Part shown: positions 17,937-49,066 of the stretch, piece after piece
Position numbering within the stretch: the first letter of the stretch is position 1
How the letters are laid out: each line of letters begins with the position of its first letter
DNA from: Akkermansiaceae bacterium
GTDB taxonomy: Bacteria > Verrucomicrobiota > Verrucomicrobiia > Verrucomicrobiales > Akkermansiaceae
Assembly: GCA_044373465.1 (NCBI GenBank)
Contig: JBILQE010000011.1
Location: 7,523-71,522, forward strand
DNA length: 64,000 nucleotides
Reading direction: 5' to 3'
Notes under the pieces: generated by a model
Databases searched by the model: none
The model's input: only the letters and a program-made list of their open reading frames with translations
Told to the model about the DNA's origin: nothing
Position numbers and translations under genes: made by a program

Positions 17937-18035
17937 GGAGCGAACTTTTTGTGTAGCGAACTTTGTGAAAAGTTCGGCGGGGTCAAGCGTCTCCCGCCAG
18001 AACGCCCGAACGCGCAAGCGACCTCCCGCCTCCTC
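17937..18035 (+). repeat. REP-A element copy a (GTAGCGAAC family), forward
   Basis: gagcgaactttttgtGTAGCGAACTTTGTGAAAAGTTCGGCGGGGtcaagcgtctCCCGCCAGAACGCCCGaacgcg... shares its 5' two-thirds with copies d-g. The 3' part is divergent. Confidence 0.85.
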
Positions 18036-18149
18036 CAGTGTTGGACTTGCCGAGGGCGCAACCCGTTGGGGTAGATGATTTTTTTGGGGGGCCATTCCCA
18101 GGGTAGGCGGGTACGCCAACCCTGGGCTTCGGGGCGAAACCGCGCTGCG

Positions 18150-18258
18150 GTATCAAGGTGTCGAACATCCAACGTCGAAACGTCGGGAAGTCCTCCGCGG
18201 GTTCGGGCGTTCTGGTGGCAGGTGGTTACCCCGCCGAACTTTTCACAAAGTTCGCTAC
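18150..18258 (-). repeat. REP-A element copy b, reverse orientation
   Basis: The reverse complement begins GTAGCGAACTTTGTGAAAAGTTCGGCGGGGTAACCACCTGCCACCAGAACGCCCG. It is in 111-bp tandem with copy c. Confidence 0.9.
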
Positions 18259-18260
18259 CC

Positions 18261-18369
18261 GTATCAAGGTGTCGAACATCCAACGTCGAAACGTCGGGAA
18301 GTCCTCCGCGCGGCCGGGCGTTCTGGCGGCAGGTGCTTACCCCGCCGAACTTTTCACAAAGTTCGCTAC
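18261..18369 (-). repeat. REP-A element copy c, reverse orientation
   Basis: Near-identical to copy b. It ends 5 nt from the stop of the GT2 gene (18374). Confidence 0.9.
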
Positions 18370-18373
18370 CCAA

Positions 18374-19411
18374 TCACGCGCGGCGGTGGCTGAGCAGAGC
18401 GAGGAGCAGGCTGCGCGGCGGGATGAGGAGGATGACGGCCTGGTAGCGGAGCATCTCGAGCAGCCGGGCGGGACTGCGCCACGGATGCCGGAACGTCCCG
18501 GTGAGTGCCCGGAGGAATTCCCGGAGGTATTTTTTGCTCTGGGGAAAGTCGCCTACGCTCAGCGAGCTCGATAGCGCCCGCCAGGATGCGAAGGCGAGCC
18601 CGAGGCTGGCTTCCAGGACGGCGTCCGGGTGGATACTGTGCATGATCGCGCGGGTCGTCTTGACGAGTTCAGCGCGCCGGCCGTCGGCCGAGCGGGCGGA
18701 CCAAACGCCGCCGGGATGCTGGCGGTAGGCGCCCATGGACCCGCCGACCTGGTGCATTTCCCCGTGGCGCGACATCATCGCAAACAGAAACAAGTCGCCG
18801 GTGACCAGCGGTTCGGGCGGCAGGGGAATTGGCAGGTTGCGAAACACAATCGAGAGCGTCGGGATGAACGCCCGGCGGATCTGCGGGAAGCACTTCAGCT
18901 CGCGGGCCTGGTTGATCCGCCCGTAGGCGAGCATCTGCGATGGCGCCAACACCACCTTGTTCGCGTCAACACCGGCCACATCATGGAATGTCAGCGCCAC
19001 CTCGGGGTGCTTGCGCAGGTAGCCGACCTGCAACTCAAGCTTGCCCGGGTCTGTCCAGTAGTCGTCACCCTCGCAGGCGGCAAGGAACTCGCCGCGGGCC
19101 ATGGCGCGCAGTTGGGGGGCAATGCGGATCCCCTGGGAATACTGGTTGGTCTCCTGCAGGACGGCCCGAATGACGTCCGGATGTCTCGCTTGATACTCGC
19201 GGATGATCTCGGCGGTTGCGTCGGTCGACGCGTCGTCATGGATGATAATCTCAACGGGAAAGCTCGTCTCCTGCATCAGGAACCCTTCGATGGCGTCCCG
19301 AATGAACCCTGCGTGGTTGTACGTCGCGCAGCAGATGCTCAGCGTCGGCACCGTGCCCGCCGGCCAAGCCTGCGCGCGCACGGGCAGCGGATCGGGGGCG
19401 GCGCTCATCAT
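18374..19411 (-). CDS. Glycosyltransferase family 2
   Basis: LSICCATYNHAGFIRDAIEGFLMQETSFPVEIIIHDDASTD is a classic GT2 N-terminal Rossmann block with the DxD region. 345 aa; 4-nt overlap with the downstream GNAT gene. Confidence 0.85.
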   Translation of the reverse strand: MMSAAPDPLPVRAQAWPAGTVPTLSICCATYNHAGFIRDAIEGFLMQETSFPVEIIIHDDASTDATAEIIREYQARHPDVIRAVLQETNQYSQGIRIAPQLRAMARGEFLAACEGDDYWTDPGKLELQVGYLRKHPEVALTFHDVAGVDANKVVLAPSQMLAYGRINQARELKCFPQIRRAFIPTLSIVFRNLPIPLPPEPLVTGDLFLFAMMSRHGEMHQVGGSMGAYRQHPGGVWSARSADGRRAELVKTTRAIMHSIHPDAVLEASLGLAFASWRALSSSLSVGDFPQSKKYLREFLRALTGTFRHPWRSPARLLEMLRYQAVILLIPPRSLLLALLSHRRA

Positions 19412-19998
19412 TCTTCCGGGTCGACAACCTTCAGATAGGGCTCAAAGGCGCCGCGCTGGGCGTCAAACTCGCAGCGCAGCACGCTCATGACGATCACGTC
19501 GTGGAACTTCCCATGCGCAAAAATCTCACTGCGCAACACCCCGTCGCGGGTTGCGCCGAGCCGCTTCGCAATCCTCAGCGGCAGGGGGTTGTCTTTCCGG
19601 ATCTTGGTGTAAATCTTGTTGAGGTTCAGCGCTTGGTGGAGGTGGTCAAGCGCCACGACAACGGCTTCAAAACCGTGGCTAAGTCCCGCGGGCTCACCTA
19701 TGCCGATGTAAACTTCCGCCTTGGCGTTGGGCACATCAATATCGCGGAAGCCAACGTAGCCGACTGGCTGGCAATTTTCTTGAGTGTGGATGATCAGATC
19801 CAGCCGGGTCGGGTCATTGGCGAGCTTTTCGGTCCACAGACGGGTGGATTCCTCGGAGATCGCTGCGGGCAGGTTGAGCTTCCGCCCGATCTCCTCGGAG
19901 TTCATCCAGCGGGTGCGGATGGCGACAAACTCCTCGGCCATCGGGACCAGGAAAATGTGCCTTCCCTCGATGAAATTCGTTCCTGGACTGAGCATCAT
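19408..19998 (-). CDS. GNAT family N-acetyltransferase (RimJ/RimL-like)
   Basis: 196 aa. ...VGYVGFRDID..AEVYIGIGEPAGLSHGFEAVVVALDHLHQALNLNKIYTKIRKDNPLPLRIAKRLG... is a GNAT fold pattern. Confidence 0.75.
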   Translation of the reverse strand: MMLSPGTNFIEGRHIFLVPMAEEFVAIRTRWMNSEEIGRKLNLPAAISEESTRLWTEKLANDPTRLDLIIHTQENCQPVGYVGFRDIDVPNAKAEVYIGIGEPAGLSHGFEAVVVALDHLHQALNLNKIYTKIRKDNPLPLRIAKRLGATRDGVLRSEIFAHGKFHDVIVMSVLRCEFDAQRGAFEPYLKVVDPEE

Positions 19999-19999
19999 T

Positions 20000-21205
20000 T
20001 CAATCGGCTTCCGTCGCCGGCACTCGCTCGACTGACTGCGGGCGACTCAAGCAAAGATCGGCAAAGTGGGCAATCCTCTCGCAGACACGGACAACATCCT
20101 CGGTGCTCACCGCGGTGCCGGTTGGCAGCACCAGCACTTGCTGGCAGAGCTTGTCAGTCGCCGGCAGCGTGGGAGCCGTCGCCTGGCGTGAGACATACGG
20201 TTCCATCCGGTGGCAGCCGGGGAAGAAATACCGGCGGACAAAGATATCCTCCGCATGCAGCGCCGCCATCAGCTCGTCGCGGTTGAAGCCCGCTTCCGCG
20301 GCGTCAATCTCGAGGATCACGTACTGCTGGTTGCTCTCGCCAATCCCCTCGTAGGCATAAACTCTCACGCCGGCCAAGGCGCCCAGCCGGCTCTGGTAGT
20401 GGCTGAAATTCCGCCGGTTGGCTGCCGTGATGGCATCCAAGCCGGCAAAGCACGCCAGCCCCATGGCGGCGTGGATCTCGGACATTTTCGCGTTGGTCCC
20501 AAGGTCCTCGACGCAGTCAAACCCGCTGAAGCCAAAGTTGATCATCAGCCGGATCCGCGCCGCGAGCGCATCGTCGTTGGTCGCGATCGCCCCGCCTTCC
20601 GCGGTGTTGAAAAACTTCGTCGCGTGAAAACTGAACACCTCGCAGCGGCCAAAATTGCCGATCATCTTCCCCCCGTGGCGACAGCCAAACGCATGCGCCG
20701 CATCAAAATACAGCTCCAACCCGTGGCGCTGCGCAATTTCCTCGAGCCGCTCCGGATGGCACCCGCGGCCCCACGTGTGGACCCCGAGAATCGCGCTCGT
20801 CCGTGGCCCGATCAGGCGCTCGACCGCCTCCGGATCCAGTAGATGAGTCACCGGATCAATCTCGCAAAATACCGGCTCCACACCCTGCCAGCGCACCGAG
20901 TGCGCCGTGGCCACAAACGTGAAGGCCGGCATGATCACCTCCCCGGTTAGCTCCAGCGCCTGGCATACCACCTGCAATCCCAGCGTCGCATTGGCCACCG
21001 GAATGCAGTGGCGCACCCCGAGGTACCCGCACAGTTCCGCCTCGAGTTGTTGGACCAACGGCCCGTTGTTGGTTAGCCAGCGCCGCGCAAACATCCCGTC
21101 AACCAGCGCATCAAACACCGCACGCTCACCCAGGTTCGGCCGCCCAACAAATAGCGGGCTTCCGCGCTCAGGCACTGGCGCAACTGGCTTGATCACTTGA
21201 CTCAT
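20000..21205 (-). CDS. DegT/DnrJ/EryC1/StrS-family PLP-dependent sugar aminotransferase
   Basis: FSFHATKFFNTAEGGAI is the PLP-lysine block, with family-typical blocks throughout. The ORF extends to a GTG at 21265 (GTGA overlap with the upstream stop). I prefer the ATG at 21205 because 21228-21252 is a copy of a short hairpin repeat that is otherwise intergenic. Confidence 0.85.
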   Translation of the reverse strand: MSQVIKPVAPVPERGSPLFVGRPNLGERAVFDALVDGMFARRWLTNNGPLVQQLEAELCGYLGVRHCIPVANATLGLQVVCQALELTGEVIMPAFTFVATAHSVRWQGVEPVFCEIDPVTHLLDPEAVERLIGPRTSAILGVHTWGRGCHPERLEEIAQRHGLELYFDAAHAFGCRHGGKMIGNFGRCEVFSFHATKFFNTAEGGAIATNDDALAARIRLMINFGFSGFDCVEDLGTNAKMSEIHAAMGLACFAGLDAITAANRRNFSHYQSRLGALAGVRVYAYEGIGESNQQYVILEIDAAEAGFNRDELMAALHAEDIFVRRYFFPGCHRMEPYVSRQATAPTLPATDKLCQQVLVLPTGTAVSTEDVVRVCERIAHFADLCLSRPQSVERVPATEAD

Positions 21206-21261
21206 TGGACGCGTTCGATCTTGGGCTGGCCGAGCTGGGGCTCGGCGTTCCGTTCCGTCTG

Positions 21262-22221
21262 TCACCCCAGCCGGAGGACGATGTCTTTGTAGCCGCTAAC
21301 TCCGATGGCCGGCTGCAGCCACTCTGGGGCGACGGGTTCTCCGCGCGCCCAGGCGACGAGTGCGGCGGGCACGTTGGCGCCGGCCAGATGTTGGAATGGA
21401 TAGTCGCCGGTGAAGCGCGGGTTGATATCGAGAACGTAACAAACGTCGTTGGACACGATCATATCGATCCCCCAGATGCCCGCATGGTTGGTTAGCCCGG
21501 CGAGCTTGGCGGCAAGCGCGGCGAACTGCTGCGGGTCGACGGTGGTGGCGCGGTCCGACTCGCCGGCGCGCATTGAATCAACCCTGCAGGCAAAGGTCGC
21601 CCTTGGAACCCCGGCGAGATCGTTGACCAGGTTGAGCCGGAATTCGGTACCGACGACAAATTCCTGGAAAATCCGCGGCGCCTCGGCCGCTCGATCTGCC
21701 GCCCCCCAGCACTCAAGCTCCTGCCTGCTCCGGCAGACCCGCAGCCCACCTGAGCCAAACCCGCTGCGCTCCTTGATGACGATTGGCAAGCGGATCTCCC
21801 CGGAGTCAAGCGCGGCTAGCGTCTCGCTCAGCGATGGACTCGTCCACGGGCTGCTTATCCCGTGGCTGCGCAAAAATTGCTGGCACTCTAACTTGTCGAG
21901 GCAGCGTTGCGCCCAGCGCGCGTCCGGCAGGGTGCTCGCGGCGCGGGCAAACCCGCCGCCGAACTGCGCGAGCACCGTGGTGTCCAGGTCATGGAGCGAG
22001 CAGAGCAGGCCGATCTCATGGGTCGCGCAGATCTGCGCGATGCTTTCCGCGTATCCCGCGCTCGCCACCGGCGCGACCACCAAGGCCACGTCGGCCACCT
22101 GCATTCCGGCCGCCTGCGCATGGCTGTTAGTGACCACCACCTGGCCGGTCCCGCCGAGCGCCTGGCGAAAGTAGTCAACCAGATAGGCGCGGCGTCCGAC
22201 GCATGTTAGCAACACGTTCAT
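21262..22221 (-). CDS. ATP-grasp domain enzyme (carboxylate-amine ligase type)
   Basis: 319 aa. MNVLLTCVGRRAYLVDYF... is a pre-ATP-grasp region, then ...LPIVIKERSGFGSGGLRV...FQEFVVGTEF...WGIDMIVSNDVCYVLDINPRFTG, an ATP-grasp pattern. Confidence 0.75.
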   Translation of the reverse strand: MNVLLTCVGRRAYLVDYFRQALGGTGQVVVTNSHAQAAGMQVADVALVVAPVASAGYAESIAQICATHEIGLLCSLHDLDTTVLAQFGGGFARAASTLPDARWAQRCLDKLECQQFLRSHGISSPWTSPSLSETLAALDSGEIRLPIVIKERSGFGSGGLRVCRSRQELECWGAADRAAEAPRIFQEFVVGTEFRLNLVNDLAGVPRATFACRVDSMRAGESDRATTVDPQQFAALAAKLAGLTNHAGIWGIDMIVSNDVCYVLDINPRFTGDYPFQHLAGANVPAALVAWARGEPVAPEWLQPAIGVSGYKDIVLRLG

Positions 22222-22241
22222 TCGCGGTCGGAGGAAGAAGG

Positions 22242-22382
22242 ATTGACCGCGGAGAAGCGGAGGCAGCGGAGAGACGCGGAGGACAGCCGGAATAAGGAAT
22301 CAGCGCATCAGGCACTGGTGCTCATTTTGAAGCTAATCTTAAGATTCTTCTCCGCGTCCCTCCGCTTCTCCGTTTCTCCGTG
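22242..22382. repeat. REP-B element copy A (CGGAGAAGCGGAGG hairpin family)
   Basis: Arms 22248-22285 (cggagaagcggaggcagcggagagacgcggagga) and 22347-22380 (cttctccgcgtccctccgcttctccg...) are mutually complementary. 22242-22286 is the exact reverse complement of 23330-23374. Confidence 0.85.
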
Positions 22383-22402
22383 GTAAGTACCATCATCGCC
22401 CA

Positions 22403-23125
22403 TTAGACCGGCGACTCCCTCGGAAGTTCCAGTTGGCCGGCGAGCACGTGGGACCGCGCTTCGGCCCGGGACGCGCGCATGATGAGGTCGAGGATCGAGA
22501 GGCTGGGGATGAACTCGGCGCTGGCCTGCGGATAGGGACGCAGGACGGGATCGACAAACCTCAATGTTAGTCCGTTCTGCGCAAATTCCGCATGCCTATA
22601 CAGGTGGCGCCCGCCGCCGGAGTTGACATAGGTGGTTGCCCGTTCCTGGCGGCAGATATCAAACAACCGGGCGGTCCCGCGGAGGTGGGCGTTGGCGTAG
22701 CCGGTCGAGGTTTCCACAATCTCGACCGGGAGCCGGAGCCAGCGGCAGATTTCGCGGATGCTCCGCGCGTTGATCGCCGAGATCGGCGCGTCCGGGTCGC
22801 TGAGCCACTCGCCCAACATCGGGAAGATCTCCGCGAAGTTGCGCGCATCGTGGTACCCGTGGGTCACTGTCTTGAGAAACCTCCGCCGCCACGCCCGGAA
22901 CCCGTCCGCCGGGCGAAACTCGTGGATCCTCGCGGTGTGCGGGTGGCGTCGCAGCGGAATCGAAAACTCGTGGCGCTCCCCGCCCATCAGGACCGTGTTG
23001 CTCGCGATCCACCCGCCTTTGATGAACTGCACATCGTCGGCCAAGACCATCTTGTCCACCGCCGCGAGCAACTGGAAATACCCCAGATACGGGAGGAAAT
23101 ACGGCTGCATGATCCCGAGGCGCAT
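22403..23125 (-). CDS. WbqC-like family protein
   Basis: ORF 22403..23215 trimmed to the ATG at 23125. MRLGIMQPYFLPYLGYFQLLAAVDKMVLADDVQFIKGGWI.N... is the characteristic WbqC-family N-terminus as I recall it. Confidence 0.75.
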   Translation of the reverse strand: MRLGIMQPYFLPYLGYFQLLAAVDKMVLADDVQFIKGGWIASNTVLMGGERHEFSIPLRRHPHTARIHEFRPADGFRAWRRRFLKTVTHGYHDARNFAEIFPMLGEWLSDPDAPISAINARSIREICRWLRLPVEIVETSTGYANAHLRGTARLFDICRQERATTYVNSGGGRHLYRHAEFAQNGLTLRFVDPVLRPYPQASAEFIPSLSILDLIMRASRAEARSHVLAGQLELPRESPV

Positions 23126-23129
23126 TGCC

Positions 23130-23482
23130 GAGGAGGGAGTCGAAGGTCGGGGGGCGGCCGGTAGGGCGATGCGTCTCCGCAGCGCCCGCGCATGAAGCCG
23201 CCGATGCTTATGCAATGAACGGACGGCAGACTTCCCATGGGCATCCCATCCTCACCCCATGCGCCGGGCGTCGGGACCCACCGAGAAGCGGAGAAAAATC
23301 CAGGTTTCGCTTTAGAATGAGAACAAGCGCTGTCCTCCGCGTCTCTCCGCTGCCTCCGCTTCTCCGCGGTCAATCCGTCAGGTCGAAGGGATCATTGAGG
23401 AGGCTTCGCGCGCGAGCAATGGCGGTTCATTCGTGGGCGCTGCGGAGACGCATCGCCCTACCGGGCCTTCGACTCCTCCCTC
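23130..23482. mobile_element. 353-bp inverted-repeat-bounded, MITE-like intergenic element (no ORF)
   Basis: The left arm 23130-23187 (gaggagggagtcgaaggtcggggggcggccggtagggcgatgcgtctccgcagcgccc) is the imperfect reverse complement of the right arm 23435-23482. The interior contains REP-B copy B (about 23281-23374). It fills the whole wbqC/LbH intergenic gap. Confidence 0.45.
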
Positions 23483-24954: not shown

Positions 24955-25025
24955 GGGGAAAAGTGAGCAGTGAGCAGACCGGTCTGATGAAGCAGTGGGA
25001 AGTGGGTAGATCCGATCAATCAAAA

Positions 25026-25892: not shown

Positions 25893-26027
25893 CGTAGCGA
25901 ACTTCTTGCGTAGCGAACTTTGTGAAAAGTTCGGCGGGGAGAACTGCCTGCCGCCAGAACGCCCGAACGCGCTAAGGACTTCCAACCTTCCCCCGCCGCA
26001 GCTACAAAACGCGACGAACCTCGCTAC
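25893..26027 (+). repeat. REP-A element copy d
   Basis: cGTAGCGAACTTcttgcGTAGCGAACTTTGTGAAAAGTTCGGCGGGGagaactgCCTGCCGCCAGAACGCCCGaacgcgctaaGGACTTCC...gaacctCGCTACg. It fills the rfbB-rfbA gap and overlaps the rfbB stop codon. Confidence 0.9.
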
Positions 26028-27067
26028 GCAACGCCGCCGCGGCGGGCCAGCGCCGGAGTGGCGGCGATGAGCGGCTGCCACCAGCCAGGATTGTCCAAGT
26101 ACCAGGCGACGGTCTGGCGGATGGCGGCATGCGGGTCGCGGGTCGGCTGCCAGCCGAGGTCACGGCGGATTTTCGCCGGGTTGATCGCGTAGCGGTGGTC
26201 GTGGCCCGGGCGGTCGGCGACCAGGCGGATTTGTTGGGCGTACCCCTGGCCGTCTGGGCGCGGGCGGAGTTCGTCGAGGATCGCGCAGAGGTGATTGACG
26301 AGGTCGATATTCCGCCACTCGTTGTTGCCTCCGATCGCGTAGGTCTCTCCCGGGGTCCCGCGCTCGGCGACGGCCAACAGCGCCGCGGCGTGGTCACCGA
26401 CAAACAACCAGTCGCGGACGTTCTCGCCGGTCCCGTAGACCGGCAGCTGCTCGCCGCCGAGCGCCTTGAGAATCGTTAGCGGAATGAGTTTCTCGGGGAA
26501 CTGGTACGGGCCAAAGTTGTTAGAGCAGTGGGTGACGACCACCGGGATGCCGAACGTCGTGTGCCAGGCGCGGGCGAGGTGGTCGGACGCCGCCTTGCTG
26601 GCCGAGTATGGCGAGTGCGGCTGATAGGGGCTGTGTTCATCGAACGCGCCGGTCGGCCCGAGCGAGCCGAAGACCTCGTCGGTGGAAACGTGGACAAAGC
26701 GGAACCCGGGGTCCGGCTGGGATGTTAGAAATGTCCGGGTAGCTTCCAACAACGTGAACGAGCCGACGATGTTGGCCTGGATGAAGGCGGCCGGGCCGTC
26801 GATGGAGCGGTCGACATGCGACTCGGCGGCGAGGTGGATGAGCCGCTGCGGGCGGAAGCCCGCGAAGGCCGAGTGGACGGCCTGGGCGTCGGCGATGTCG
26901 GCGTGGCGGAACTGATAGGCCGGGTGGTTTTCGAGGTCGGCGAGCGACGCGCGGTTGCCGGCGTAGGTGAGTTTGTCGACGTTGAGGACCTGGTGGCCGT
27001 GGGCGACGAGGAGCCTGACGAGGTTGGAGCCGATGAATCCGGAGCCGCCGGTGACGAGGATGCGCAT
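26024..27067 (-). CDS. rfbB: dTDP-glucose 4,6-dehydratase
   Basis: [20 protein letters not shown]...DKLTYAGN...[11 protein letters not shown] (YxxxK)...; colinear with RfbB/RmlB. 347 aa. Confidence 0.92.
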
Positions 27068-39494: not shown

Positions 39495-40337
39495 TTGGAT
39501 TTCCTGTTGGGAAACCTGCTCGTCGCGGGGTATCTGAGGAGGGTGAACGCGTTGCGCATGCTCGGCAGGATGCCGCTGGACTTCATCGCCTATCTCGGCG
39601 GGGTCGGCAGCCTGGCTGGCGCGACGGGTGAATCGCTGGTCCGCGGCCGGCGGCGCTGGCGGGTGGTCATCGCCCAGATTGCGGAGATCGGCTACCGATC
39701 GCAGCCGGTGGTGATCATCACCGGGGCGTTCACCGGAGCCGTGCTCGCTGCCCAGGCGTTGTTCCAATTCAGCGCGTTGAACATGGAAACCGCGGGCGGC
39801 GCGCTGGTCAGCGTGGCGATGCTGCGCGAGCTCGGGCCAACGATCACCGCGCTGATGCTCGCCGGGCGCGTCGGCGCCGCCATGGCCGCCGAGATCGGCA
39901 CCATGAAGGTCACCGAGCAAATCGACGCGCTCCGCTCGATGGACGTCCACCCGATCGACTTCCTGGTCGCCCCGCGGTTGTTGGCGATGCTCGTCTCGAT
40001 GCCGTTGCTCATCGCCGAGAGCGCGGCGTTTGGGATTGTCGCGTCGTTCATCGTCGGCGTCTACGCGTTCGATGTCACGGAAGCCTACTGGCTGGCGAAC
40101 ATGCAGAAGTTCACCGTGCTGTCGGACATCTTCATCGCCATGGTCAAGGGGCTGGTGTTCGGCGTCCTCACCGTGATGATCTCCTGCCACCAAGGGCTCT
40201 CAACCACCAACGGCGCCGTCGGCGTCGGCCGCGCCACCACCCGCGCGATGGTCTATTCCTCCCTCGCCATCCTCATCTCCAACTTCTTCCTCACCTTGCT
40301 GATGAACGTGTTCTTCCCAAGTGGGGGGACGAGGTGA
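39495..40337 (+). CDS. mlaE: MlaE-family ABC transporter permease
   Basis: ...IAQIAEIGYRSQPVVIITGAFTGAVLAAQALFQF...LGPTITALMLAGRVGAAMAAEIGTMKVTEQIDALRSM...; colinear with MlaE/TtgB-type permeases. TTG at 39495; alternative ATG at 39558. Confidence 0.8.
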   Translation: MDFLLGNLLVAGYLRRVNALRMLGRMPLDFIAYLGGVGSLAGATGESLVRGRRRWRVVIAQIAEIGYRSQPVVIITGAFTGAVLAAQALFQFSALNMETAGGALVSVAMLRELGPTITALMLAGRVGAAMAAEIGTMKVTEQIDALRSMDVHPIDFLVAPRLLAMLVSMPLLIAESAAFGIVASFIVGVYAFDVTEAYWLANMQKFTVLSDIFIAMVKGLVFGVLTVMISCHQGLSTTNGAVGVGRATTRAMVYSSLAILISNFFLTLLMNVFFPSGGTR

Positions 40338-40340
40338 CGT

Positions 40341-40438
40341 GCGTAGCGAACTTTGTTAAAAGTTCGGCGGGGTCAACCGCCTGCCGCCAGAACGCCCGGG
40401 CTCACCAGAGGACTTCCGGGCGTTACCCCGCCGAAGCA
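40341..40438 (+). repeat. REP-A element copy e
   Basis: gcGTAGCGAACTTTGTTAAAAGTTCGGCGGGGtcaaccgCCTGCCGCCAGAACGCCCGggctcaccagaGGACTTCCgggcgttaCCCCGCCGAAGc. It begins 4 nt after the mlaE stop and overlaps the PIN gene stop. Confidence 0.9.
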
Positions 40439-40935
40439 TCCACTTCGAGCAATTCCCGGCGGATATCGCGGTAAAGGGCAATCGAGATGCGCAGATGGTG
40501 GGATGAAACCGCGGTGTCCACATCAGCCATCGCTTCTTGACCGGTGAGCAACCCGCGCCGGGCAGCAAGGACGAGCAGGCCGAGGGTGCCGATGGTGGCG
40601 ATCCCCTCGTGAGCGGCGATGCGGCGCAGCAGTCGTTCGTCAGCCACCAGCCAGTCGGCGCAGTGGCGCACGGCGTAGGCTAAAGTGCGTGCGTCACTCG
40701 CGCTGAGTCTGCCCGACGGCTGGGTTGGCTCCGGGATTGTGACAATCCGGATGCTTCCGAGAAACTCGCGCAGGCGTTGCTGTTCGGCATGGAAGTTTTC
40801 AGCCGGGGCAAGCACCTCGGCGACGACGCCTTGGAGAACGACCACCTCGCCGCCCAGCAGGGAACCGATGAGGGTCAATCGGTCCAGCTTTGCCAAGAAA
40901 ATCAGCGGACTCGCGTCACAAACCACGGTGGTCAT
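40423..40935 (-). CDS. PIN-like nuclease toxin (DUF3368 type)
   Basis: MTTVVCDASPLIFLAKLDRL... and ...ATIGTLGLLVLAARRGLL... match the DUF3368 pattern that partners UPF0175 antitoxins. 4-nt overlap with the upstream gene. Confidence 0.72.
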   Translation of the reverse strand: MTTVVCDASPLIFLAKLDRLTLIGSLLGGEVVVLQGVVAEVLAPAENFHAEQQRLREFLGSIRIVTIPEPTQPSGRLSASDARTLAYAVRHCADWLVADERLLRRIAAHEGIATIGTLGLLVLAARRGLLTGQEAMADVDTAVSSHHLRISIALYRDIRRELLEVDASAG

Positions 40936-41264
40936 GGCAAGCGGCTCAGATCGTCACGGAAGTCGCTGACATCATAGTGCAGGTCGACTTTCGCCGCTTC
41001 CATCAGCGCAAGGAAATCCCATGGGCTAAGGCCCGCGAGCTCCGCGGCGCGCGAGAGGGTCACCTTCTCCTGCCGGTAGGCGTCCACCGCCCGGTCCCGG
41101 CGCAGGTGCTCTAAGCCATTCCTCAGCAAAGTTTTGATGAGCGTCGCCCGATCACACCCTTCCAGCTCAGCCAAGGACTGGATCAGTGCCACTTCCGCAT
41201 CATTCAGACGGGTGGAAACGGTGCTAGTTGCCGGCATGTCTACAGCATCGCACACCGTAAACAT
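40932..41264 (-). CDS. UPF0175-family antitoxin
   Basis: ...AVDAYRQEKVTLSRAAELAGLSPWDFLALMEAAKVDLHY... is the characteristic UPF0175 helix-turn-helix C-terminus. Confidence 0.72.
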   Translation of the reverse strand: MFTVCDAVDMPATSTVSTRLNDAEVALIQSLAELEGCDRATLIKTLLRNGLEHLRRDRAVDAYRQEKVTLSRAAELAGLSPWDFLALMEAAKVDLHYDVSDFRDDLSRLP

Positions 41265-41277: not shown

Positions 41278-41390
41278 GCGTAGCGAACTTGGGGAAAAGT
41301 TCGGCGGGGTCAACCGCCTGCCGCCAGAACGCTCGAGCACGCCAAGGACTTCCCGCCGTCCTCCGCCGAAGCTCTCGCGAGCTTCGCTAC
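41278..41390 (+). repeat. REP-A element copy f
   Basis: gcGTAGCGAACTTggggaAAAGTTCGGCGGGGtcaaccgCCTGCCGCCAGAACGCtcgagcacgccaaGGACTTCCCGCCGTCCTCCGCCGAAGCTCTCGCGAGCTTCGCTAC. It lies between the antitoxin start and the sufD stop. Confidence 0.9.
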
Positions 41391-41397
41391 GAGGGTC

Positions 41398-42687
41398 TTA
41401 GGGGAACTTCGCGTCGAGGAAGCGCAGGGCGGCGTCCTGGAGGGCTGGGTTTGAGAGGCGGTCGATGACGTCGATGGAGAACCCGCGGGCGATGAGCTGG
41501 CGGGCGCGGACCGGGTCGATCCCGCGGGCGCGGAGGTAGAAGATCTCCTCGTCGCTGATCTGTGAGGAGGTGCTGCCGTGGGAGCACTTCACTTGGTCGG
41601 CGTTGATTTCCAGGCCGGGCATCGAGTTGGCCTCGGCGTCGTCGCTCATGAACAGGTTGCGGCAAGTCTGGTAGGCGTCGGTTTGGTGGGCGCCTTCGTC
41701 GACCGAGATCAGGCCGGAGAAGATGGTCCGCGACTTGTCGTACAAGGTGTTCTTGTAGAGCAAGTCTGAGGATGCGCCGGGAGCCACGTGGTGTTGGAAC
41801 GTGCGCTGGTCAAATTCTTGCGTCCCGGTGGGGACCGAGACGGCCAGCATGTCGGAGCGGCCGCCGCGCCCTTCGAGGCGGCTAAGGCTTTCATTGCGCG
41901 CCCAGCTGGCGCCGAGGTTGAGGATGAAGCCGGTGGCGGAGGCGTCGGCGGCCACGCTCGTCTCGTTGACCTGGATGACTTTGCTCGCTTCGTTGAACGC
42001 CTGGATGGCGACGTAGTCGAGCTTTGACCCGGGGCCGGCGATCAAGTCATTGACCGCGATCGCCAAGCCGGGATCGGCCGGGTTGCCGGACTGGAAGTAA
42101 TCGATCACGCTGACCTTCGCGCCGCGGCCGGTGACGATCAGGGTGTGCGGGAAGATCACGACGTTCTCGCCGGCGAGCCAGTGGAAAACTTCGATCGGCT
42201 CCTCAACTTCAACGCCATCAGGAACAAAAACAAACAAGCCGTTGCGCAGGCTCGCCTCGTGCAGCGCGGTGAACTTCGCCGACCCGAGGCGGGTGTCGCG
42301 GCGCATGAAGTGCTCGCGGACGAGCTCGCCGTGGGTCGCAAGCGCCTCGGCCAGCGGCAGGCAGACGACCCCGTCTGGCAGGCGCGAGTCGCTCAGGACC
42401 AGCTCGTCGTTGATGAACACGAACTTCGCCGCAGAAACCTCGAGCGAGCATGAGCGGGCCAGCAGCCGGGCCGCATCCGGAGTTTCTGCGCTAGGCATGA
42501 AGGTGCTGAAATCCAGCTCCTTGAGTGATGAGAACCGCCACTGCTCGTCGCCGCGCTTCGGTTGCGGCGTGGCAAGAAATCGCTGCCACGCGGAATCCTG
42601 GCGCGCGGAAAACCAGGCGGGGAAGCCAGCCGGTGAACTCGGGGCGGTGGTGAGCAGGGAAGTAGGATGGTCGAGCACGGCAGACAT
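41398..42687 (-). CDS. sufD: Fe-S cluster assembly protein SufD
   Basis: ORF trimmed to the ATG at 42687. ...RGDEQWRFSSLKEL... and the C-terminal ...QTCRNLFMSDDAEANSMPGLEINADQVKCSHGSTSSQISDEEIFYLRARGI... are SufD/SufB-fold blocks. Confidence 0.88.
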   Translation of the reverse strand: MSAVLDHPTSLLTTAPSSPAGFPAWFSARQDSAWQRFLATPQPKRGDEQWRFSSLKELDFSTFMPSAETPDAARLLARSCSLEVSAAKFVFINDELVLSDSRLPDGVVCLPLAEALATHGELVREHFMRRDTRLGSAKFTALHEASLRNGLFVFVPDGVEVEEPIEVFHWLAGENVVIFPHTLIVTGRGAKVSVIDYFQSGNPADPGLAIAVNDLIAGPGSKLDYVAIQAFNEASKVIQVNETSVAADASATGFILNLGASWARNESLSRLEGRGGRSDMLAVSVPTGTQEFDQRTFQHHVAPGASSDLLYKNTLYDKSRTIFSGLISVDEGAHQTDAYQTCRNLFMSDDAEANSMPGLEINADQVKCSHGSTSSQISDEEIFYLRARGIDPVRARQLIARGFSIDVIDRLSNPALQDAALRFLDAKFP

Positions 42688-42706
42688 GGGAAAAGCTAGA
42701 GGGGGC

Positions 42707-42880: not shown

Positions 42881-43065
42881 GCGATGATCAATTCACCGCG
42901 CTGCCTCACTCCGGGTAAGCTCTTTGAAGTCAGCTCTTTGTACAGGTCGACAAGATGCTCTTTGAGATCATCAAGGCTTTCTCCCTGAGTCTGGTAGTCA
43001 GGAAAGTCGTCCAGAAAACCAAGGAAGAAGTCCCCGTCCTGCCAGTAGGTAAAGCTCGCTTTCAT
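42877..43065 (-). CDS. hicB: HicB-family antitoxin (short form, 62 aa)
   Basis: MKASFTYWQDGDFFLGFLDDFPDYQTQGESLDDLKEHLVDLYKELTSKSLPGVRQRGELIIA matches the YWQD..W.LGYL.E.PDY.TQGE..EEL.E.L.D.Y..L motif of short HicB-like antitoxins. It is the C-terminal part of ORF 42877..43374, which otherwise overlaps sufB. Confidence 0.78.
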   Translation of the reverse strand: MKASFTYWQDGDFFLGFLDDFPDYQTQGESLDDLKEHLVDLYKELTSKSLPGVRQRGELIIA

Positions 43066-43079
43066 TGGCGTAAGAATCG

Positions 43080-44513: not shown

Positions 44514-44551
44514 GGAAGTGGGTGGGTGGCCGCGGGTGCGGCGGGGTTTGG

Positions 44552-45307
44552 TCAGGCGTTTACAAGCGCCTCGTCTTTCAGGAAGTCGTAGCCTTTTTCC
44601 TCGAGTTCGAGGGCAAGTTCCGGGCCGCCGGAGCGGACGATCCGCCCCTCGGCCATGACGTGGACGTGGTCCGGCTTGATGTAGTCGAGCAGCCGCTGGT
44701 AGTGGGTGATGAGCAGGAAGCCGCGGGTGGGCGAGCGCATCTCGTTGACGCCCTTGGCGACGATCCGAAGCGCGTCGATATCGAGCCCGGAGTCGGTCTC
44801 GTCCAAGATAGCATACCCTGGCTCAAGCATCATGAGCTGGAGGATTTCGTTGCGCTTTTTTTCGCCGCCGGAGAACCCTTCGTTGACCGCGCGGGCGGTG
44901 AACTTGCGGTCCATCTCGAGGATGTCCATCTTGGCGTAGAGCTCCTTGTAGAAAGCGACGGCGTCAATTTCCTCGCCCTTCGGCAGGCGTGCCTGGCGCG
45001 CGGCGCGGAGGAAGTTCGCGTTGGAAACTCCGGGGACTTCTGCCGGATATTGGAAGGCGAGGAAGATCCCGGCGCGCGAGCGTTCATCGACCGACATCGC
45101 CAGCAGGTCGAGCCCGTCCATCGTCACCGAGCCACCGGTCACCTCGTAGCTCTCGTGGCCGGCAATGATTTTCGAGAGCGTCGACTTCCCGGACCCGTTC
45201 GGGCCCATGATCGCGTGCACCTCGCCGCGGGGGATTTCCAGGTTGACCCCTTTGAGGATCTCGGTTTCGCCGATGCGGGCGTGCAGGTCGTGGATCAGTA
45301 GGCTCAT
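44552..45307 (-). CDS. sufC: Fe-S cluster assembly ATPase SufC
   Basis: [44 protein letters not shown]...[36 protein letters not shown]... Confidence 0.95.
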
Positions 45308-45337
45308 GAAAGTTGCTCAGGGTGAAAGGTTGCTCGG

Positions 45338-45763
45338 CTAGGCGCTCGGCAGCTTGCCGCGCAGGGTGATCTCGACGTGCTCGATGACCGCGCCCTCGGG
45401 AAGGATGATGAAGTCGGAAAGTTCCACGCCCGGCTTGAAGACCACGTCGTGGATCGTGTTGCTCGCGAGGTCGTGGAAATGCCCGTGCTCGGTCAGGTTC
45501 GGGCAGTAGCGCGACGGCCCGCGCTCAAAGTTGACCTGCCGGACGAGCCGGTGCTGGACCAACGCTTCCAGGCAGTTGTAGACCGTCGCCAGGGACACCG
45601 AGGGGAGCCCCTCCTTGACCTTCATGAACACGTCGTTGGCCGTCGGGTGGTCGAGATCCCGATTCAGCACCCGGAACACCTCGCGGCGCTGCCGGGTCAT
45701 GCGCAAGCCACCCACCGCTTCGAGCGGCCCGTGGGAATCCGAATGATGCTCGTGGTTGACCAT
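45338..45763 (-). CDS. Fur-family metalloregulator
   Basis: ...RMTRQRREVFRVL....HPTANDVFMKVKE..PSVSLATVYNCLEALVQHRLVRQVNF... is a winged helix, followed by the ...EHGHFHD... metal site. The N-terminal MVNHEHHSDSHG is His-rich. No CxxC pairs are present. Confidence 0.8.
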   Translation of the reverse strand: MVNHEHHSDSHGPLEAVGGLRMTRQRREVFRVLNRDLDHPTANDVFMKVKEGLPSVSLATVYNCLEALVQHRLVRQVNFERGPSRYCPNLTEHGHFHDLASNTIHDVVFKPGVELSDFIILPEGAVIEHVEITLRGKLPSA

Positions 45764-45801
45764 GACGGCGGCAACCTAGGCGACCACCGGCCGGTTTCAA
45801 G

Positions 45802-45820
45802 AATAATTCTAATTTTAATT
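45802..45820. promoter_or_regulatory. AT-rich Fur-box-like site / promoter upstream of the fur-suf operon
   Basis: aataattctaattttaatt is an isolated AT block in GC-rich DNA, 39-57 nt upstream of the fur-like ATG. By my own alignment it matches GATAATGATAATCATTATC at 12 of 19 positions. On the coding strand it reads as three AATTAN hexamers and contains a TAGAAT -10-like hexamer. Confidence 0.4.
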
Positions 45821-46113
45821 CCAGATCTTTCCCGCGAGCGTGGACGCAATGGCGGGTCGTGGGGGAATTGGCAAGCCAAGAGCGCGGCCCATGATGCTTT
45901 GCGCGGGCGGAACCGCGTTGCGGTTCTAATAGCTTGCTGGCGGATCCCAGGGTAGGCCGCATTCGGCCAACCCTGGGCTGAAGGGCGCAAGCCCGCTGGG
46001 CTTGGGAGCGTCCTTCGGCCGGGTTGCGCCGCCCGCGCGGAACCAGCCGGCGCGGCGTGACGGACCGATGAACCGGCTTGCTGGAGCGGTAGAAAAAACA
46101 AGGCTGTCGGCCT

Positions 46114-46482
46114 ATGGCACCCGATTTTGCAAAGATATTTTTCGATGGTGGGCCGGTGATGATCTTGGTCGCGCTGGCGACCCTGGCGTGGGTTGCCGCG
46201 ATGGTGGTGTGCTTGCTGTGGAAATGGCCGTATGCGAAGCGCTTGGCGGTGATGGCGGTGTTTCCGCTGGCGTTTGTGATCCTTGGAGCGCTGAAGGCGG
46301 CGCTCAACGAGCACGCCGCGGCGCTCTATGGCATCCGGTACGGCCTGGTCGACCCGGGAATGTATTATGAAGATTTGTTGGCAGCGAGCCGTTCGAGCAT
46401 GATGATCCTGGCCATGGCCGGGTTATCAATGCTGGTGTTCGTGGTCGGGTGCTTTCTGCCGCTCGGCGCGGAAAAAAAGTAA
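46114..46482 (+). CDS. Small integral membrane protein (hypothetical)
   Basis: 122 aa with 3-4 clear hydrophobic segments (ILVALATLAWVAAMVVCLL, LAVMAVFPLAFVILGAL, MMILAMAGLSMLVFVVGCFL). No family recognised. Confidence 0.5.
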   Translation: MAPDFAKIFFDGGPVMILVALATLAWVAAMVVCLLWKWPYAKRLAVMAVFPLAFVILGALKAALNEHAAALYGIRYGLVDPGMYYEDLLAASRSSMMILAMAGLSMLVFVVGCFLPLGAEKK

Positions 46483-46557
46483 CCTTGCCCGGCGTCCCGC
46501 GCCGGAGCTCCCACGAGCGCGCGCTGCCGTCGCGCTTCCCACCCTTGGTGTCCGCGC

Positions 46558-47403
46558 TTACGCCAGCGCCTTGCGGAGGAATTTGACGCCGTTGATGGCG
46601 ATGTCTTCGCGGCGGGGTTCCATCATGCGCCAGATCGAGGCGGCCTTGGCGATGACGAGGACGTCCGGGGTGAACGACTCGATGACGACGTGGCCGTCAA
46701 AGCCGACCTCCTTGAGGGCGGCGGCGATCGAGACCCAGTCGGTGTGGTCGCCGCCGGGAGTCCCGCGGTCGCTGCCGCAGGCGTGGAAGTGTTTGAGGTG
46801 CTTGCCGGCGCGGCGGATGGCGGCGGCCGAGTGTTTTTCCTCGATGTTCATGTGGAACGTGTCGAGGTGGACGCTGAGCGCCGGGCTGGCGACATCGGCA
46901 ACCATCTGGAGCGCTTGGTCGCAGGTGTTGATGAAGTCGGTCTCGAAGCGGTTGAGTGGCTCGAGGCAGATTTGGATCCCTTTTTCCTGGGCGTAGGCGC
47001 AGACGGTTTTGAGGTTCTTGACCACGCTGGCCCACTGGGCCGGGCGTTCCTCGTCAGGGACATACTCGGCGCGGCCGACAGCCGAGTAGACCGGGCCGAT
47101 GATGCTCGGGCAGCCGAGGACGACGGCGGCGTCGATGAGGCCTTTTTGGTAGGTGATGGAGATTTGCTGTTGTTCCTCGGTCCCGCGGAGGTCGCGGTCC
47201 GGGCCGAAGGCGCCGCAGATCGACCCGCAGACGAGGCCGTTGCGCTCGAGCTCGGCCTTGACGAAGGCCGGGTCGATGTGGCTCGGGTCCTCAAGGGCGA
47301 TCTCGACGGAGTCGAAGCCCCATTCCTTGAACTGGGGGAACAACGCGGTGCTCTCGTTGGTGAACGGGGAGGCGAAGAGAAAGGTGTTGATGCCGATTTT
47401 CAT
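46558..47403 (-). CDS. Sugar phosphate isomerase/epimerase (xylose-isomerase-like TIM barrel; ketose 3-epimerase-like)
   Basis: MKIGINTFLF...WGFDSVEIAL...ICLEPLNRFETDFINT...VHLDTFHMNIEE...HFHACGSDRGTPG...; colinear with the AP_endonuc_2 / D-tagatose-psicose 3-epimerase family. Confidence 0.8.
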   Translation of the reverse strand: MKIGINTFLFASPFTNESTALFPQFKEWGFDSVEIALEDPSHIDPAFVKAELERNGLVCGSICGAFGPDRDLRGTEEQQQISITYQKGLIDAAVVLGCPSIIGPVYSAVGRAEYVPDEERPAQWASVVKNLKTVCAYAQEKGIQICLEPLNRFETDFINTCDQALQMVADVASPALSVHLDTFHMNIEEKHSAAAIRRAGKHLKHFHACGSDRGTPGGDHTDWVSIAAALKEVGFDGHVVIESFTPDVLVIAKAASIWRMMEPRREDIAINGVKFLRKALA

Positions 47404-47549
47404 GAGGACTGGTGTTTGGTGGCCGGATGAATTCCCGGCATGCGCGGAGGATTCCCAAACGAGCGGGGTCGGTCAACACCGCGGTTTGGCGGCGGATTGG
47501 CCAGCTATCCCCTTGAATTTGATGGCGGTGGCGAGTCAGCTAGCGGCGG

Positions 47550-48851
47550 ATGAGCGCAGCGGAAGAACAGGTGGTGATTGTCGGCGGCGGGCCGGCCGGC
47601 TGCACCCTGGCGGCGCTGTTGGCGATGCGGGGGATAGCGGTGGTCGTTTGCGATGACGAGAAGCGGCCGGAGTTGTTGGTCGGCGAGTCGCTGCTGCCCA
47701 CGGTGGTGGCGGTGTTGCGGCGGCTGGGGATCGAGGAGCGGGCGGCGGCGTTCTGCGAGCGCAAGCCGGGCGTCGGGCTCATCGACGCATTTGGCGGGCG
47801 GGTCGACTTCCAGTTTCCGGCCGGCGCGTTCGGCGACCTGCCAAATTACGCGTACAACGTCCCGCGGCCGCAATTCGACGACCTGCTGCGGGCGCGGGCG
47901 GTCGAGCTGGGTGTCCGGTTTGTCAGCCACCGGGCGGTGGTCGTGGTCGGCGGTCCGGGTGAGCCGGAGCTGGTCCTCAGCGCGGCGAGCCAGGAGGCGC
48001 TTGGGCTCGGGCGGCGGCCGGCATTGCTGGTCGATGCGACCGGGCGGGCGCGGACATTTGCGCGGGCGCTCGGGGTCGGCGCGCGCCGCGGGAAGCGCAA
48101 CGATGTTGCGTATTTCGCCCATTTTGAGGATTTCAAAGACGATTCGAACCAGCCCGGGCAGGTCGTCATCAGCGTGCTTGAGCGCGGCTGGTCGTGGCGG
48201 ATCCCGCTCCCCGGGCGGCTCTCGGTTGGGGTGGTCATCCCGGTGGCGCGGGCCCGCGAGCTGGGCGCAACCGCGGCGGAACGGCTCACGAACCTCATCG
48301 AGCTTGAGCCGGTGTTGCGGGCCGCCGGAGCGCGCGCGCGGCGCGTCAGCGAGGTGATGACCTACACGAACTACCAGCTCATCTCCGAGCGCGGCCATGG
48401 CCCCGGCTGGGTGATGGCCGGGGATGCCTATGGATTTGTCGACCCGATGCTTTCCCCGGGGCTGTTCATGGCCATGGAGTCGGCCACCTTGCTTGACCGC
48501 TTGGTGTTTGCCGGCGGTCCCGCGGTGCTCGCCGACCCGGCCCGCTGCGCCGCCGGGTTTGACCGCTACGTCGCGGAGCTGGAAGCGTGGCACACCGCAT
48601 GGGCCGAGCTGATCGAGTACTTTTACGACGGGAGGATTTTCTCGCTCGCCGAGGCCGGTAGGAAAATCCGCGCCGCCTCGGCAGCCAACGGGCTCATCGC
48701 CCGCTTCGACCGGCTCCTGACCCGCCAGATCGCGGGGATGGCCGCCGGCGTCTGGACCCGCCGGCGGATTAGCCGCCACCTGCTGAGGTTCTTTGCCCAG
48801 TACATGCTCCGGGATGTCCGCGAGCCGGCCGAGTATGCGATCCCTTCCTGA
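47550..48851 (+). CDS. FAD-dependent enzyme with flavin-dependent halogenase motifs
   Basis: N-terminal VVIVGGGPAGCTLAALLA...VVVCDDE...LVGESLLP is a GxGxxG dinucleotide fold, and an internal ERGWSWRIPLPG matches WxWxIP. Confidence 0.7.
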   Translation: MSAAEEQVVIVGGGPAGCTLAALLAMRGIAVVVCDDEKRPELLVGESLLPTVVAVLRRLGIEERAAAFCERKPGVGLIDAFGGRVDFQFPAGAFGDLPNYAYNVPRPQFDDLLRARAVELGVRFVSHRAVVVVGGPGEPELVLSAASQEALGLGRRPALLVDATGRARTFARALGVGARRGKRNDVAYFAHFEDFKDDSNQPGQVVISVLERGWSWRIPLPGRLSVGVVIPVARARELGATAAERLTNLIELEPVLRAAGARARRVSEVMTYTNYQLISERGHGPGWVMAGDAYGFVDPMLSPGLFMAMESATLLDRLVFAGGPAVLADPARCAAGFDRYVAELEAWHTAWAELIEYFYDGRIFSLAEAGRKIRAASAANGLIARFDRLLTRQIAGMAAGVWTRRRISRHLLRFFAQYMLRDVREPAEYAIPS

Positions 48852-48854
48852 GGG

Positions 48855-49066
48855 CGTAGCGAACTTTCCACGTAGCGAACTTCGGGAAAAGTTCGGCGGG
48901 GCGAACTGTCTGCCGCCAGAACGCCCGGACGCGCCAGGGACTTCCCGCCGTCCCCCGCCGAAGCTCTCACGAGCTTCGCTACCGAACGCCTCAACGCGTT
49001 AGGGATTCCCGCCGTCCTCCGCCGAAGCTCTCACGAGCTTCGGTGCCAGAGCACGAGCTTCGCTAC
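48855..49066 (+). repeat. REP-A element copy g (one full unit plus a partial duplicated 3' module)
   Basis: cGTAGCGAACTTtccacGTAGCGAACTTcgggaAAAGTTCGGCGGGGcgaactgtCTGCCGCCAGAACGCCCGgacgcgccagGGACTTCCCGCCGTCCCCCGCCGAAGCTCTCACGAGCTTCGCTAC, then ...GGGATTCCCGCCGTCCTCCGCCGAAGCTCTCACGAGCTTCGg...GAGCTTCGCTAC. It overlaps the rlmN stop codon. Confidence 0.9.

Follow-up and report, generated by a model that had tools for sequence, protein, structure and literature searches.

An intergenic repeat family in an Akkermansiaceae contig very probably represents a REPIN-RAYT system

The 64-kb stretch of DNA analyzed in this study (hereafter the window; contig JBILQE010000011.1 of an Akkermansiaceae bacterium) encodes, among other proteins, a sulfotransferase, a GT2 glycosyltransferase, RfbA, RfbB, and MlaE, as well as a UPF0175 antitoxin, a SufB/D-like protein, an FAD halogenase-like protein, and RlmN, all of which were confirmed by Pfam. 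Next to these genes lie the copies of REP-A, a family of short, highly structured repeats. An earlier examination of this DNA without database searches (the sequence-only reading) had described seven copies and interpreted them either as a mobile element of the MITE/REP type (miniature inverted-repeat transposable element or repetitive extragenic palindrome) or as a family of structured RNAs. The analysis presented here indicates that REP-A very likely consists of REP doublets of the kind known as REPINs (REP doublets forming hairpins) or BIMEs (bacterial interspersed mosaic elements), which together with a REP-associated tyrosine transposase (RAYT) form a REPIN-RAYT system. The earlier statement that REP-A is not a named element holds for its sequence family, and no description of this family or of a verrucomicrobial RAYT clade was found in the literature; the kind of element, however, is well described under the names REP, BIME, REPIN, and GTAG HH heterodimer. 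REP-A is a new sequence family of an already known kind and not a new element or RNA class.

Beyond the window, true copies were collected by pattern scans of public genomes and metagenomes. They derive from the metagenome-assembled genome of a lake Akkermansiaceae (loci L002-L006) and, mainly, from a single metagenome (Ga0136639; L011-L055), while the scan matches L001, L018, L025, L035, L037, and L043 were discarded as chance matches located in coding regions or in other unrelated DNA. The canonical unit has a length of 111 nt and reads GTAG-CGAACTTC-GTGA-GAAGTTCG-GCGGGG, followed by a conserved spacer of ~52 nt and by CCCCGC-CGAAGCTC-TCAC-GAGCTTCG-CTAC; the consensus of 52 full-length copies, nearly all of which measure exactly 111 nt, is GTAGCGAACTTCGTGAGAAGTTCGGCGGGG tgAACCgCCTGCCGCCAGAACGCCCGAACGCGCaAaGGACTTCCCgCCTCC CCCCGCCGAAGCTCTCACGAGCTTCGCTAC. 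The unit is composed of two inverted modules of ~30 nt with GTAG facing outward, each consisting of GTAG, a perfect 8-9-bp stem, a GTGA loop, and GGCGGGG. The sequence-only reading had listed a terminal inverted repeat, a 5' stem-loop, a long-range complementarity, a central segment, and a 3' stem-loop. Inspection and alignment of the sites showed that all five are present as described, but not as distinct features, since the terminal repeat, both stem-loops, and the long-range complementarity are the two ~30-nt inverted copies of one GTAG-hairpin-GGCGGGG module. GTAG-CGAACTTC-GTGA-GAAGTTCG and GTAG-CGAAGCTC-GTGA-GAGCTTCG are found in nearly all copies, which places the modules in the GTAG class of REPs, defined by a palindromic stem-loop of 20-40 nt that has a 5' GT[AG]G tetranucleotide at its foot (PMC6006769, PMC3733652). 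Furthermore, among 107 non-overlapping model matches in the window and 45 loci (a copy-biased sample), 54 are complete 111-nt doublets with the conserved spacer, i.e., the doublet arrangement of REPINs and BIMEs.

A covariance model (R1), built from 50 full-length copies and run unfiltered on the window, matched exactly the seven copies of the sequence-only reading, at the positions given there, together with one extra half-copy. Its remaining matches in the window were unconvincing (18.2 bits at best, E ≥ 0.0057). With up to one mismatch, the 11-mer GTAGCGAACTT occurs 10 times in the window compared to an expectation of 0.33, a count that none of 100 shuffles reached. Copy a (17937..18062, + strand) is matched by the model at 17953-18062, with its 5' REP hairpin and spacer extending from 17953 to ~18038 (model positions 1-86), and lacks the 3' REP; a partial extra head, GGAGCGAACTT, is located at 17937-17947. 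This copy borders on the 5' end of the sulfotransferase ORF and may overlap it; the public call of that gene begins inside the copy. On the opposite strand, copies b (18150..18258, model match 18174-18258) and c (18261..18369, model match 18285-18369) are tandem partners, arranged head-to-tail with a period of 111 nt and 95% identity, b being the first unit. The 5' REP and spacer of b (model positions 1-79) correspond to 18181-18258, and the alternative 3' module that had been noted for both copies was recovered as a different module at 18150-18180 in copy b, with neither copy possessing a 3' hairpin. The GT2 glycosyltransferase gene (18374-19411, −) has its stop codon at a distance of 5 nt from the GTAG end of copy c.

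Copy d (25894..26027, +; model match 25910-26032) is located between rfbB and rfbA, in antisense orientation to both genes; its unit begins at 25910, a partial extra head occupies 25894-25904, and its 3' REP is degenerate (...GACGAACCTCGCTAC) and carries an insertion. Copy e (40343..40442, +; model match 40343-40451, model positions 1-98) is devoid of the 3' REP and is located between the convergent mlaE (stop at 40337) and a 170-aa ORF (40423-40935, −). Copy f (41280..41390, +) is complete at 111 nt, comprising the 5' REP, the spacer, and the 3' REP; it is flanked by the UPF0175 antitoxin gene, which starts at 41264, and by the sufB/D-like gene, which has its stop at 41398. Finally, copy g (48856..49066, +) is a composite that contains a complete 111-nt unit at 48872-48982, a partial extra head at 48856-48866, an extra 3' half-unit at 48984-49044 (model match 48984-49042, +), and a third 3' terminus, CAGAGCACGAGCTTCGCTAC, at 49047-49066. 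The doubling of the 5' module in copies a, d, and g and the duplication of the 3' module in g, both reported earlier, are hence borne out in the form of partial heads and half-units. Copies a, b, c, and e match the model only from position 1 to ~80-98, without the 3' hairpin, and only f and g are intact in the window. In addition, a possible decayed 3' REP relic, GCCGGAGCTCCCACGAGCGCGCG, at 46503..46527 (+) gave a weak match to the model (10.3 bits, E 0.48), at a site where a relative (L011) has a full copy.

Partial heads of this kind are common in the family. Of 82 copies whose 5' end is intact, 31 have a stuttered head, GTAGCGAA(CT..) followed by a C-rich linker, at a distance of 13-18 nt upstream of the true 5' end; in some cases this head is repeated twice or three times. 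These heads fall outside what a simple REPIN model explains. Relatives furthermore harbor tandem arrays, in which as many as five full units and eight 3' half-units occur; the window shows the same on a small scale with the b-c tandem and the extra halves of g, and many metagenome contigs end in a REP-A copy.

Alignment of 50 full-length copies revealed near-invariant ends and a variable center. A comparison of the 5' module, GTAGCGAACTTCGTGAGAAGTTCGGCGGGG, with the reverse complement of the 3' module, GTAGCGAAGCTCGTGAGAGCTTCGGCGGGG, shows four differences across 30 nt, which are compensatory inside each hairpin (CTTC/GAAG versus GCTC/GAGC). Likewise, pair 12-17 of the 5' hairpin is C-G in 36 copies and U-A in 12 copies. 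Compensatory substitutions, looked for in this larger alignment, are accordingly present within both hairpins: the local hairpins are 97.9% paired, with none of 500 shuffles reaching the observed score, compared to 85.5% pairing, without compensatory change, for a fold-back of the whole unit. No covariation was detected in the aligned copies outside the two terminal hairpins, including the spacer. What is conserved is the structure of each hairpin, and neither a long stem nor a spacer structure.

This pattern bears directly on the proposal that REP-A comprises structured RNAs, be they cis-regulatory elements or small RNAs, whose stems are kept because the RNA fold is functional. Within the window, stems are indeed conserved and loops variable. 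GTGA is a GNRA-type loop, a relative has kept copy f at the orthologous site (see below), and single copies fold somewhat better than shuffled sequences (z −1.0 to −3.6), even though this is clear only for g and e. However, covariation is restricted to the terminal hairpins, which are inverted copies of each other. Rfam yielded nothing for the elements, neither at the gathering score nor at E ≤ 1; across the whole window, nothing reached the gathering score, and the only hit was a chance miRNA match (E 0.54) near e and f. Relative to transcription, 11 copies are in sense and 9 in antisense orientation, with one cluster mixed, and this lack of orientation bias argues against a strand-specific RNA. 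Moreover, truncated halves and tandem arrays, as well as a transposase-like gene flanked by the same modules (see below), are difficult to reconcile with an RNA family, and T-tract terminators are absent from all elements, which also led us to reject a reading of REP-A as intrinsic terminators. We therefore regard a structured-RNA family as highly unlikely, and this half of the earlier interpretation was not sustained. A search of a protein database with a concatenated three-frame profile of the translated elements yielded 8000 word candidates, none of them at E ≤ 0.001, and blastn of copy g against plasmids gave no match.

The near-perfect 30-nt terminal inverted repeats, the uniform length of 111 nt, and the dispersed, multicopy occurrence would also fit a classical MITE, i.e., a deletion derivative of an insertion sequence (IS) with a DDE transposase that is mobilized in trans via its ~30-bp ends. 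However, no target-site duplication was found in 53 full-length copies, the flanks of which match in only 2 nt ('gc'; C at position −1 in 41 of 53 copies and G at +1 in 35 of 53). Furthermore, neither a longer element with the same ends nor a DDE transposase beside the copies was found in ~0.56 Mb (the window and the loci), and no parent IS with REP-A ends turned up there. The sole IS observed, a member of the IS110 family with the Pfam domains Transposase_20 and DEDD_Tnp_IS110 (L026 10489-12262, ORF 10697-11959, −), is not bounded by the repeats. Instead, it interrupts a REP-A copy that is part of an array, with its insertion point precisely at the junction of GTAG and CGAACTT. For classical REPs of Pseudomonas and E. 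coli, IS110-family elements targeting REPs are known. Since each supposed terminal inverted repeat is itself a GTAG-tagged hairpin, and since compensatory changes keep the hairpins and not the end-to-end pairing, we consider a MITE origin extremely unlikely, and only the REP part of the former MITE/REP proposal is retained. A reading as IS200/IS605-derived palindromic elements (PATEs) was rejected as well, because the hairpins point in opposite directions, with GTAG on the outside, instead of sharing one orientation, and because the units have no attached TnpB or TnpA IS.

The REP-type reading is carried by the inverted hairpins with outward GTAG, by the lack of target-site duplications, and by a RAYT gene that REP-A flanks in two close relatives. 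A phmmer search with E. coli TnpA-REP (a query identical to PDB entry 4ER8) against all ORFs of the window and the loci found nothing, because this RAYT clade is too divergent for single-sequence searches. A scan with the relaxed motif [ND]H.H...Y..NP, on the other hand, matched one ORF, which adjoins the five-unit array of L030. On contig Ga0136639_10000296 (adjacent pieces L040 and L030), two units (+), this ORF of 191 aa, and five units (−) follow one another, and the TAG stop of the ORF lies in the GTAG of the first downstream unit (L030 537-539). Such an arrangement, a RAYT gene bracketed by its REPs, has been termed REPtron (PMC6006769, PMC3733652). The second REPtron, L061 from sample 3300050211, comprises one unit (+) upstream of the RAYT gene and three units (−) downstream, with REP-A matches of 135-140 bits; its protein is ~87% identical, as aligned, to the 191-aa protein and falls into the same 90% cluster, and its hairpin variants, TTTGTGAAAAG and TTTGTTAAAAG, are those seen in the window.

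The 191-aa protein contains the motifs PDHGH (HUH) and YVLKNP (Y...NP). In an alignment of 57 homologues, the D, H, H, Y, and N residues are invariant and the P of the motif is nearly so, and these positions align to PEHMH and YIYINP of 4ER8. The protein matched the NCBIfam model REP_Tyr_transpos (NF047646) at an E value of 1.3e-10 over profile positions 13-145 of 146. Among solved structures, 4ER8 was the best match of the 57-sequence family profile (hmmsearch E 2e-8; hhalign 95%), and its HUH and Y motifs line up with those of the family. Furthermore, the AlphaFold model of a 66%-identical homologue, P0002 (pLDDT 93.5, pTM 0.88), had 4ER8_A as its top Foldseek match (E 4.5e-8, TM 0.63/0.70, root-mean-square deviation 2.5 Å over 144 columns), followed by structures of IS200/IS605 TnpA. 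A database search returned 195 homologues, several of which are named 'REP element-mobilizing transposase RayT' by JGI, and others carry NCBI names that assign them to Luteolibacter, Opitutae/Opitutales, and Verrucomicrobiota. By profile and predicted fold, the REP-A-flanked protein is thus a RAYT, i.e., a TnpA-REP-like, single-domain HUH/Y1 protein.

Five additional RAYT homologues (L056-L060) are each flanked by GTAG hairpins of their own. These are CGAAGCTT-GTGA-AAGCTTCG at L056 (P0002), CTGCGTTG-GTGA-CAACGCAG and CGGAAGTG-GTGA-CACTTCCG at L058 (Luteolibacter sp. LG18), and CGGAAGTC-GTGA-GACTTCCG at L060 (P0008), as well as related variants with GTAA/GTCA loops at L059 (P0004) and a hairpin with a longer stem and a TGCG loop at L057 (P0011). 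Most hairpins of the clade share a GTGA-type loop and a GGCGGGG-like box, while their stems differ but stay complementary: in a cross-lineage alignment of 13 units, six of eight stem pairs changed on both sides, and none of 500 shuffles reached the observed score. The stop codon of the RAYT gene is the TAG inside the downstream GTAG in five of seven REPtrons; in addition to L030, these are L056 (821-823), L057 (3610-3612), L058 (4559-4561), and L060 (3565-3567). It may be noted that the same device ends rfbB and rlmN in the window.

In the window, the TAG stop of rfbB is supplied by the CTAC end of copy d (26024-26027) and that of rlmN by the CTAC end of copy g (49063-49066), and copy e encloses the final five codons of the 170-aa ORF together with its stop. 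The overlaps with stop codons reported by the sequence-only reading were thereby confirmed for all three genes, the 170-aa ORF being the one it had called a PIN gene. Its description of the copies as strictly intergenic is slightly too strong, as they lie between genes or overlap no more than gene ends. Based on a rough gene call relying on GC content at third codon positions, the 34 classifiable sites of the window and loci comprise 21 codirectional, 9 convergent, and 4 divergent ones.

With 30 of these 34 sites at gene 3' ends, it could be argued that REP-A units are host-domesticated gene-end modules (stabilizers of mRNA 3' ends, attenuators, or gyrase/IHF-like binding sites) that are kept by host selection, an explanation that is compatible with a REP origin. 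The stops that GTAG supplies to rfbB and rlmN and the orthologous copy f, with unchanged stems but changed loops and spacer, are in line with it, and such roles are documented for classical REPs (PMC6006769). Yet five of the seven window copies are without one hairpin (missing or degenerate), copy f changes at about the rate of its flanks (90% versus 87% identity), copy g is absent in L011 together with a neighboring gene, and a terminator signature is lacking. We consider host selection an unlikely explanation for the maintenance of the family; a secondary role for the host, e.g., through effects on mRNA 3' ends, may nevertheless exist.

These comparisons rest on two Ga0136639 contigs, L033 and L011, that are syntenic with the window at 41.3-46.5 kb and 46.6-60.3 kb, respectively, with 78-93% identity. 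In L033, copy f has been kept at its orthologous site with 100 of 111 positions identical, compared to 87% identity in the adjoining 310 nt; none of the 11 differences affects a stem position, all of them being located in loops and spacer. L011 lacks copy g along with the halogenase-like gene next to it, and carries a full copy at the site of the possible relic of the window. The absence of g from L011 and the presence of a copy in place of the window's relic point to turnover of REP-A between species, as judged from these alignments. In place of the halogenase-like gene (47550-48851) and copy g (window 47404-49066), a 9-nt array, (GGTCAATCC)n, was observed at L011 12120-12370.

Combining the stop codons given to rfbB, rlmN, and RAYT genes with the retention of a copy with intact stems, one may envision a verrucomicrobial RAYT-REPIN clade with a fixed, for the most part constant frame (GTAG, the GNRA-like GTGA loop, and a 3' GGCGGGG box), in which the 8-bp stem is rewritten in each lineage and units are partly domesticated as gene-end modules for the host. 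We regard this extended scenario as rather doubtful; if true, the units would be more than just selfish DNA and would serve the host at the level of RNA or DNA.

Several observations weigh against the interpretation of REP-A as a REPIN-RAYT system and should be considered. No RAYT gene is present in the 64-kb window, and the link to RAYT is based on two related contigs from other samples; that the genome of the window organism still encodes a RAYT would be expected from these relatives. The middle residue of the HUH motif is a glycine, and the 191-aa protein scored below the curated cut-offs of both NF047646 (41.3 bits versus 80) and Pfam Y1_Tnp (PF01797; 21 bits versus 23), even though the latter shortfall is due to the model and not the protein, as E. 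coli TnpA-REP itself reached only 15.7 bits on PF01797. In addition, the cross-lineage units were partly picked by a perfect-stem finder, so that their 100% pairing is partly by construction. Only two of the seven window copies are intact and, given the truncation of the other five, REP-A may be in decay or no longer active in this lineage. Finally, the presence of f at one site in two species that are ~11% diverged indicates stability and not recent movement, and no clean pair of a filled and an empty site was found among the compared relatives, so that the mobility of the units is suggested by sequence comparison and not observed. Despite these points, the REPIN-RAYT interpretation remains the one that we consider very likely.

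By analogy to the enzymes of E. coli, Stenotrophomonas, and Marinomonas (PMC8266576, PMC3479197), the RAYT would bind the folded hairpin on single-stranded DNA, read the 5' GTAG at its foot, and cleave and rejoin beside this GTAG. Such cleavage and rejoining would spread or rearrange units without target-site duplication, and arrays, half-units, and stuttered heads could arise as by-products of RAYT processing and recombination or slippage. That the RAYT identified here cleaves or mobilizes REP-A hairpins is accordingly a prediction drawn from these characterized enzymes.

Some further features of the window were recorded. Copies e and f bracket a two-gene module composed of the UPF0175-family antitoxin gene (40932-41264) and the 170-aa ORF, for which only a weak match to DUF3368 was obtained. 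A reading of e and f as integron attC sites enclosing this toxin-antitoxin-like pair as a cassette was rejected, as REP-A copies are found among housekeeping genes, in mixed orientation, and at a spacing of 1-14 kb. A second small repeat, CCCAGGGTAGGC-N6-8-GCCAACCCTGGG, is present at 18097-18126, between copies a and b, and at 45946-45977; it forms a palindrome that contains GTAG, and both copies are followed by a similar GGGCG.AA.CCGC tail. In the polysaccharide gene cluster, a WbqC-like gene (22403-23215, −) is bracketed by a 51-nt inverted repeat (22237-22287 and 23329-23379; 98% complementary, rich in GCGGAG/CTCCGC), and a second pair of 39 nt (23158-23196 and 23426-23464) overlaps this region. 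Yet another repeat family, located upstream of the REP-A region, consists of direct repeats of 108 nt (14300-14407 and 15936-16043; 95% identical) and of 32 nt (15512-15543 and 15885-15916). Moreover, a tandem 12-nt repeat, GCGGGCTGCGGC, is found in ~6 copies at 55113-55183.

The assignment of REP-A explains highly structured intergenic DNA in freshwater Verrucomicrobiota (Akkermansiaceae or Luteolibacter-like) and also accounts for breaks of metagenome contigs, for over-extended or mis-started ORF calls, and for stop codons inside repeats. Furthermore, the clade offers a natural series of RAYT orthologues with 45-90% identity, whose hairpins mostly share the same frame but differ in their stems, and which should be useful for working out how perfect-palindrome REPs are recognized.

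With respect to known systems, REP-A matches published definitions of these elements (PMC3733652, PMC6006769, PMC8266576, PMC3337134); in the terms of PMC3733652 it is a GTAG 'HH heterodimer' with a conserved spacer, and in those of Bertels and Rainey a REPIN. Like the REPINs and GTAG HH heterodimers of Pseudomonas fluorescens, Stenotrophomonas, and Marinomonas (PMC3116915, PMC3337134, PMC3733652, PMC8266576), REP-A units consist of two inverted hairpins with outward 5' GTAG, perfect-palindrome stems, and a conserved spacer, with a total length of ~110 nt. They are extragenic and multicopy, occur as singlets, doublets, and tandem clusters, lack target-site duplications, and form REPtrons in which a repeat overlaps the 3' end of the RAYT gene. 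They differ from the REPINs of those hosts by their host phylum, Verrucomicrobiota, and by their sequence, which defines a new family, as well as by frequent stuttered partial heads of 13-18 nt. In the REP-A clade, the GTGA-type loop and the 3' GGCGGGG-like box are mostly constant across lineages, while the stems are rewritten. Its RAYT is divergent, with ~19% identity to E. coli TnpA-REP, an HUH motif in the form of H-G-H or H-A-H, and scores below curated HMM (hidden Markov model) cut-offs.

MITEs of the Correia/NEMIS, ERIC, and RUP types resemble REP-A in being intergenic, ~100-150 nt long, and in having terminal inverted repeats and hairpin potential, but these elements show target-site duplications (e.g., TA for Correia) and a relation to DDE transposases, neither of which applies to REP-A. 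The BIMEs of E. coli, built from Y, Z1, and Z2 REPs, also pair two slightly different REP types in inverted orientation with a defined linker and the GTAG tag, and E. coli TnpA-REP (4ER8) is the best structural and profile match of the REP-A-associated protein. Unlike the E. coli REPs, which are imperfect palindromes with a bulge, REP-A has perfect stems of 8-9 bp with a 4-nt loop, and no counterpart of the BIME linkers or of the known sites for IHF and gyrase was recognizable in it. Within the same phylum, GTAG repeats (GTAG-17/18/19) have been described in Opitutus terrae (PMC3733652), so that GTAG-tagged REPs are abundant in a verrucomicrobium there as well. In contrast to REP-A, the dimer partners of the O. 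terrae repeats are only 1-2 bp apart and many of their copies are intragenic (PMC3733652), and their sequences differ, the string GTAGCG being absent from the text and supplements of that study.

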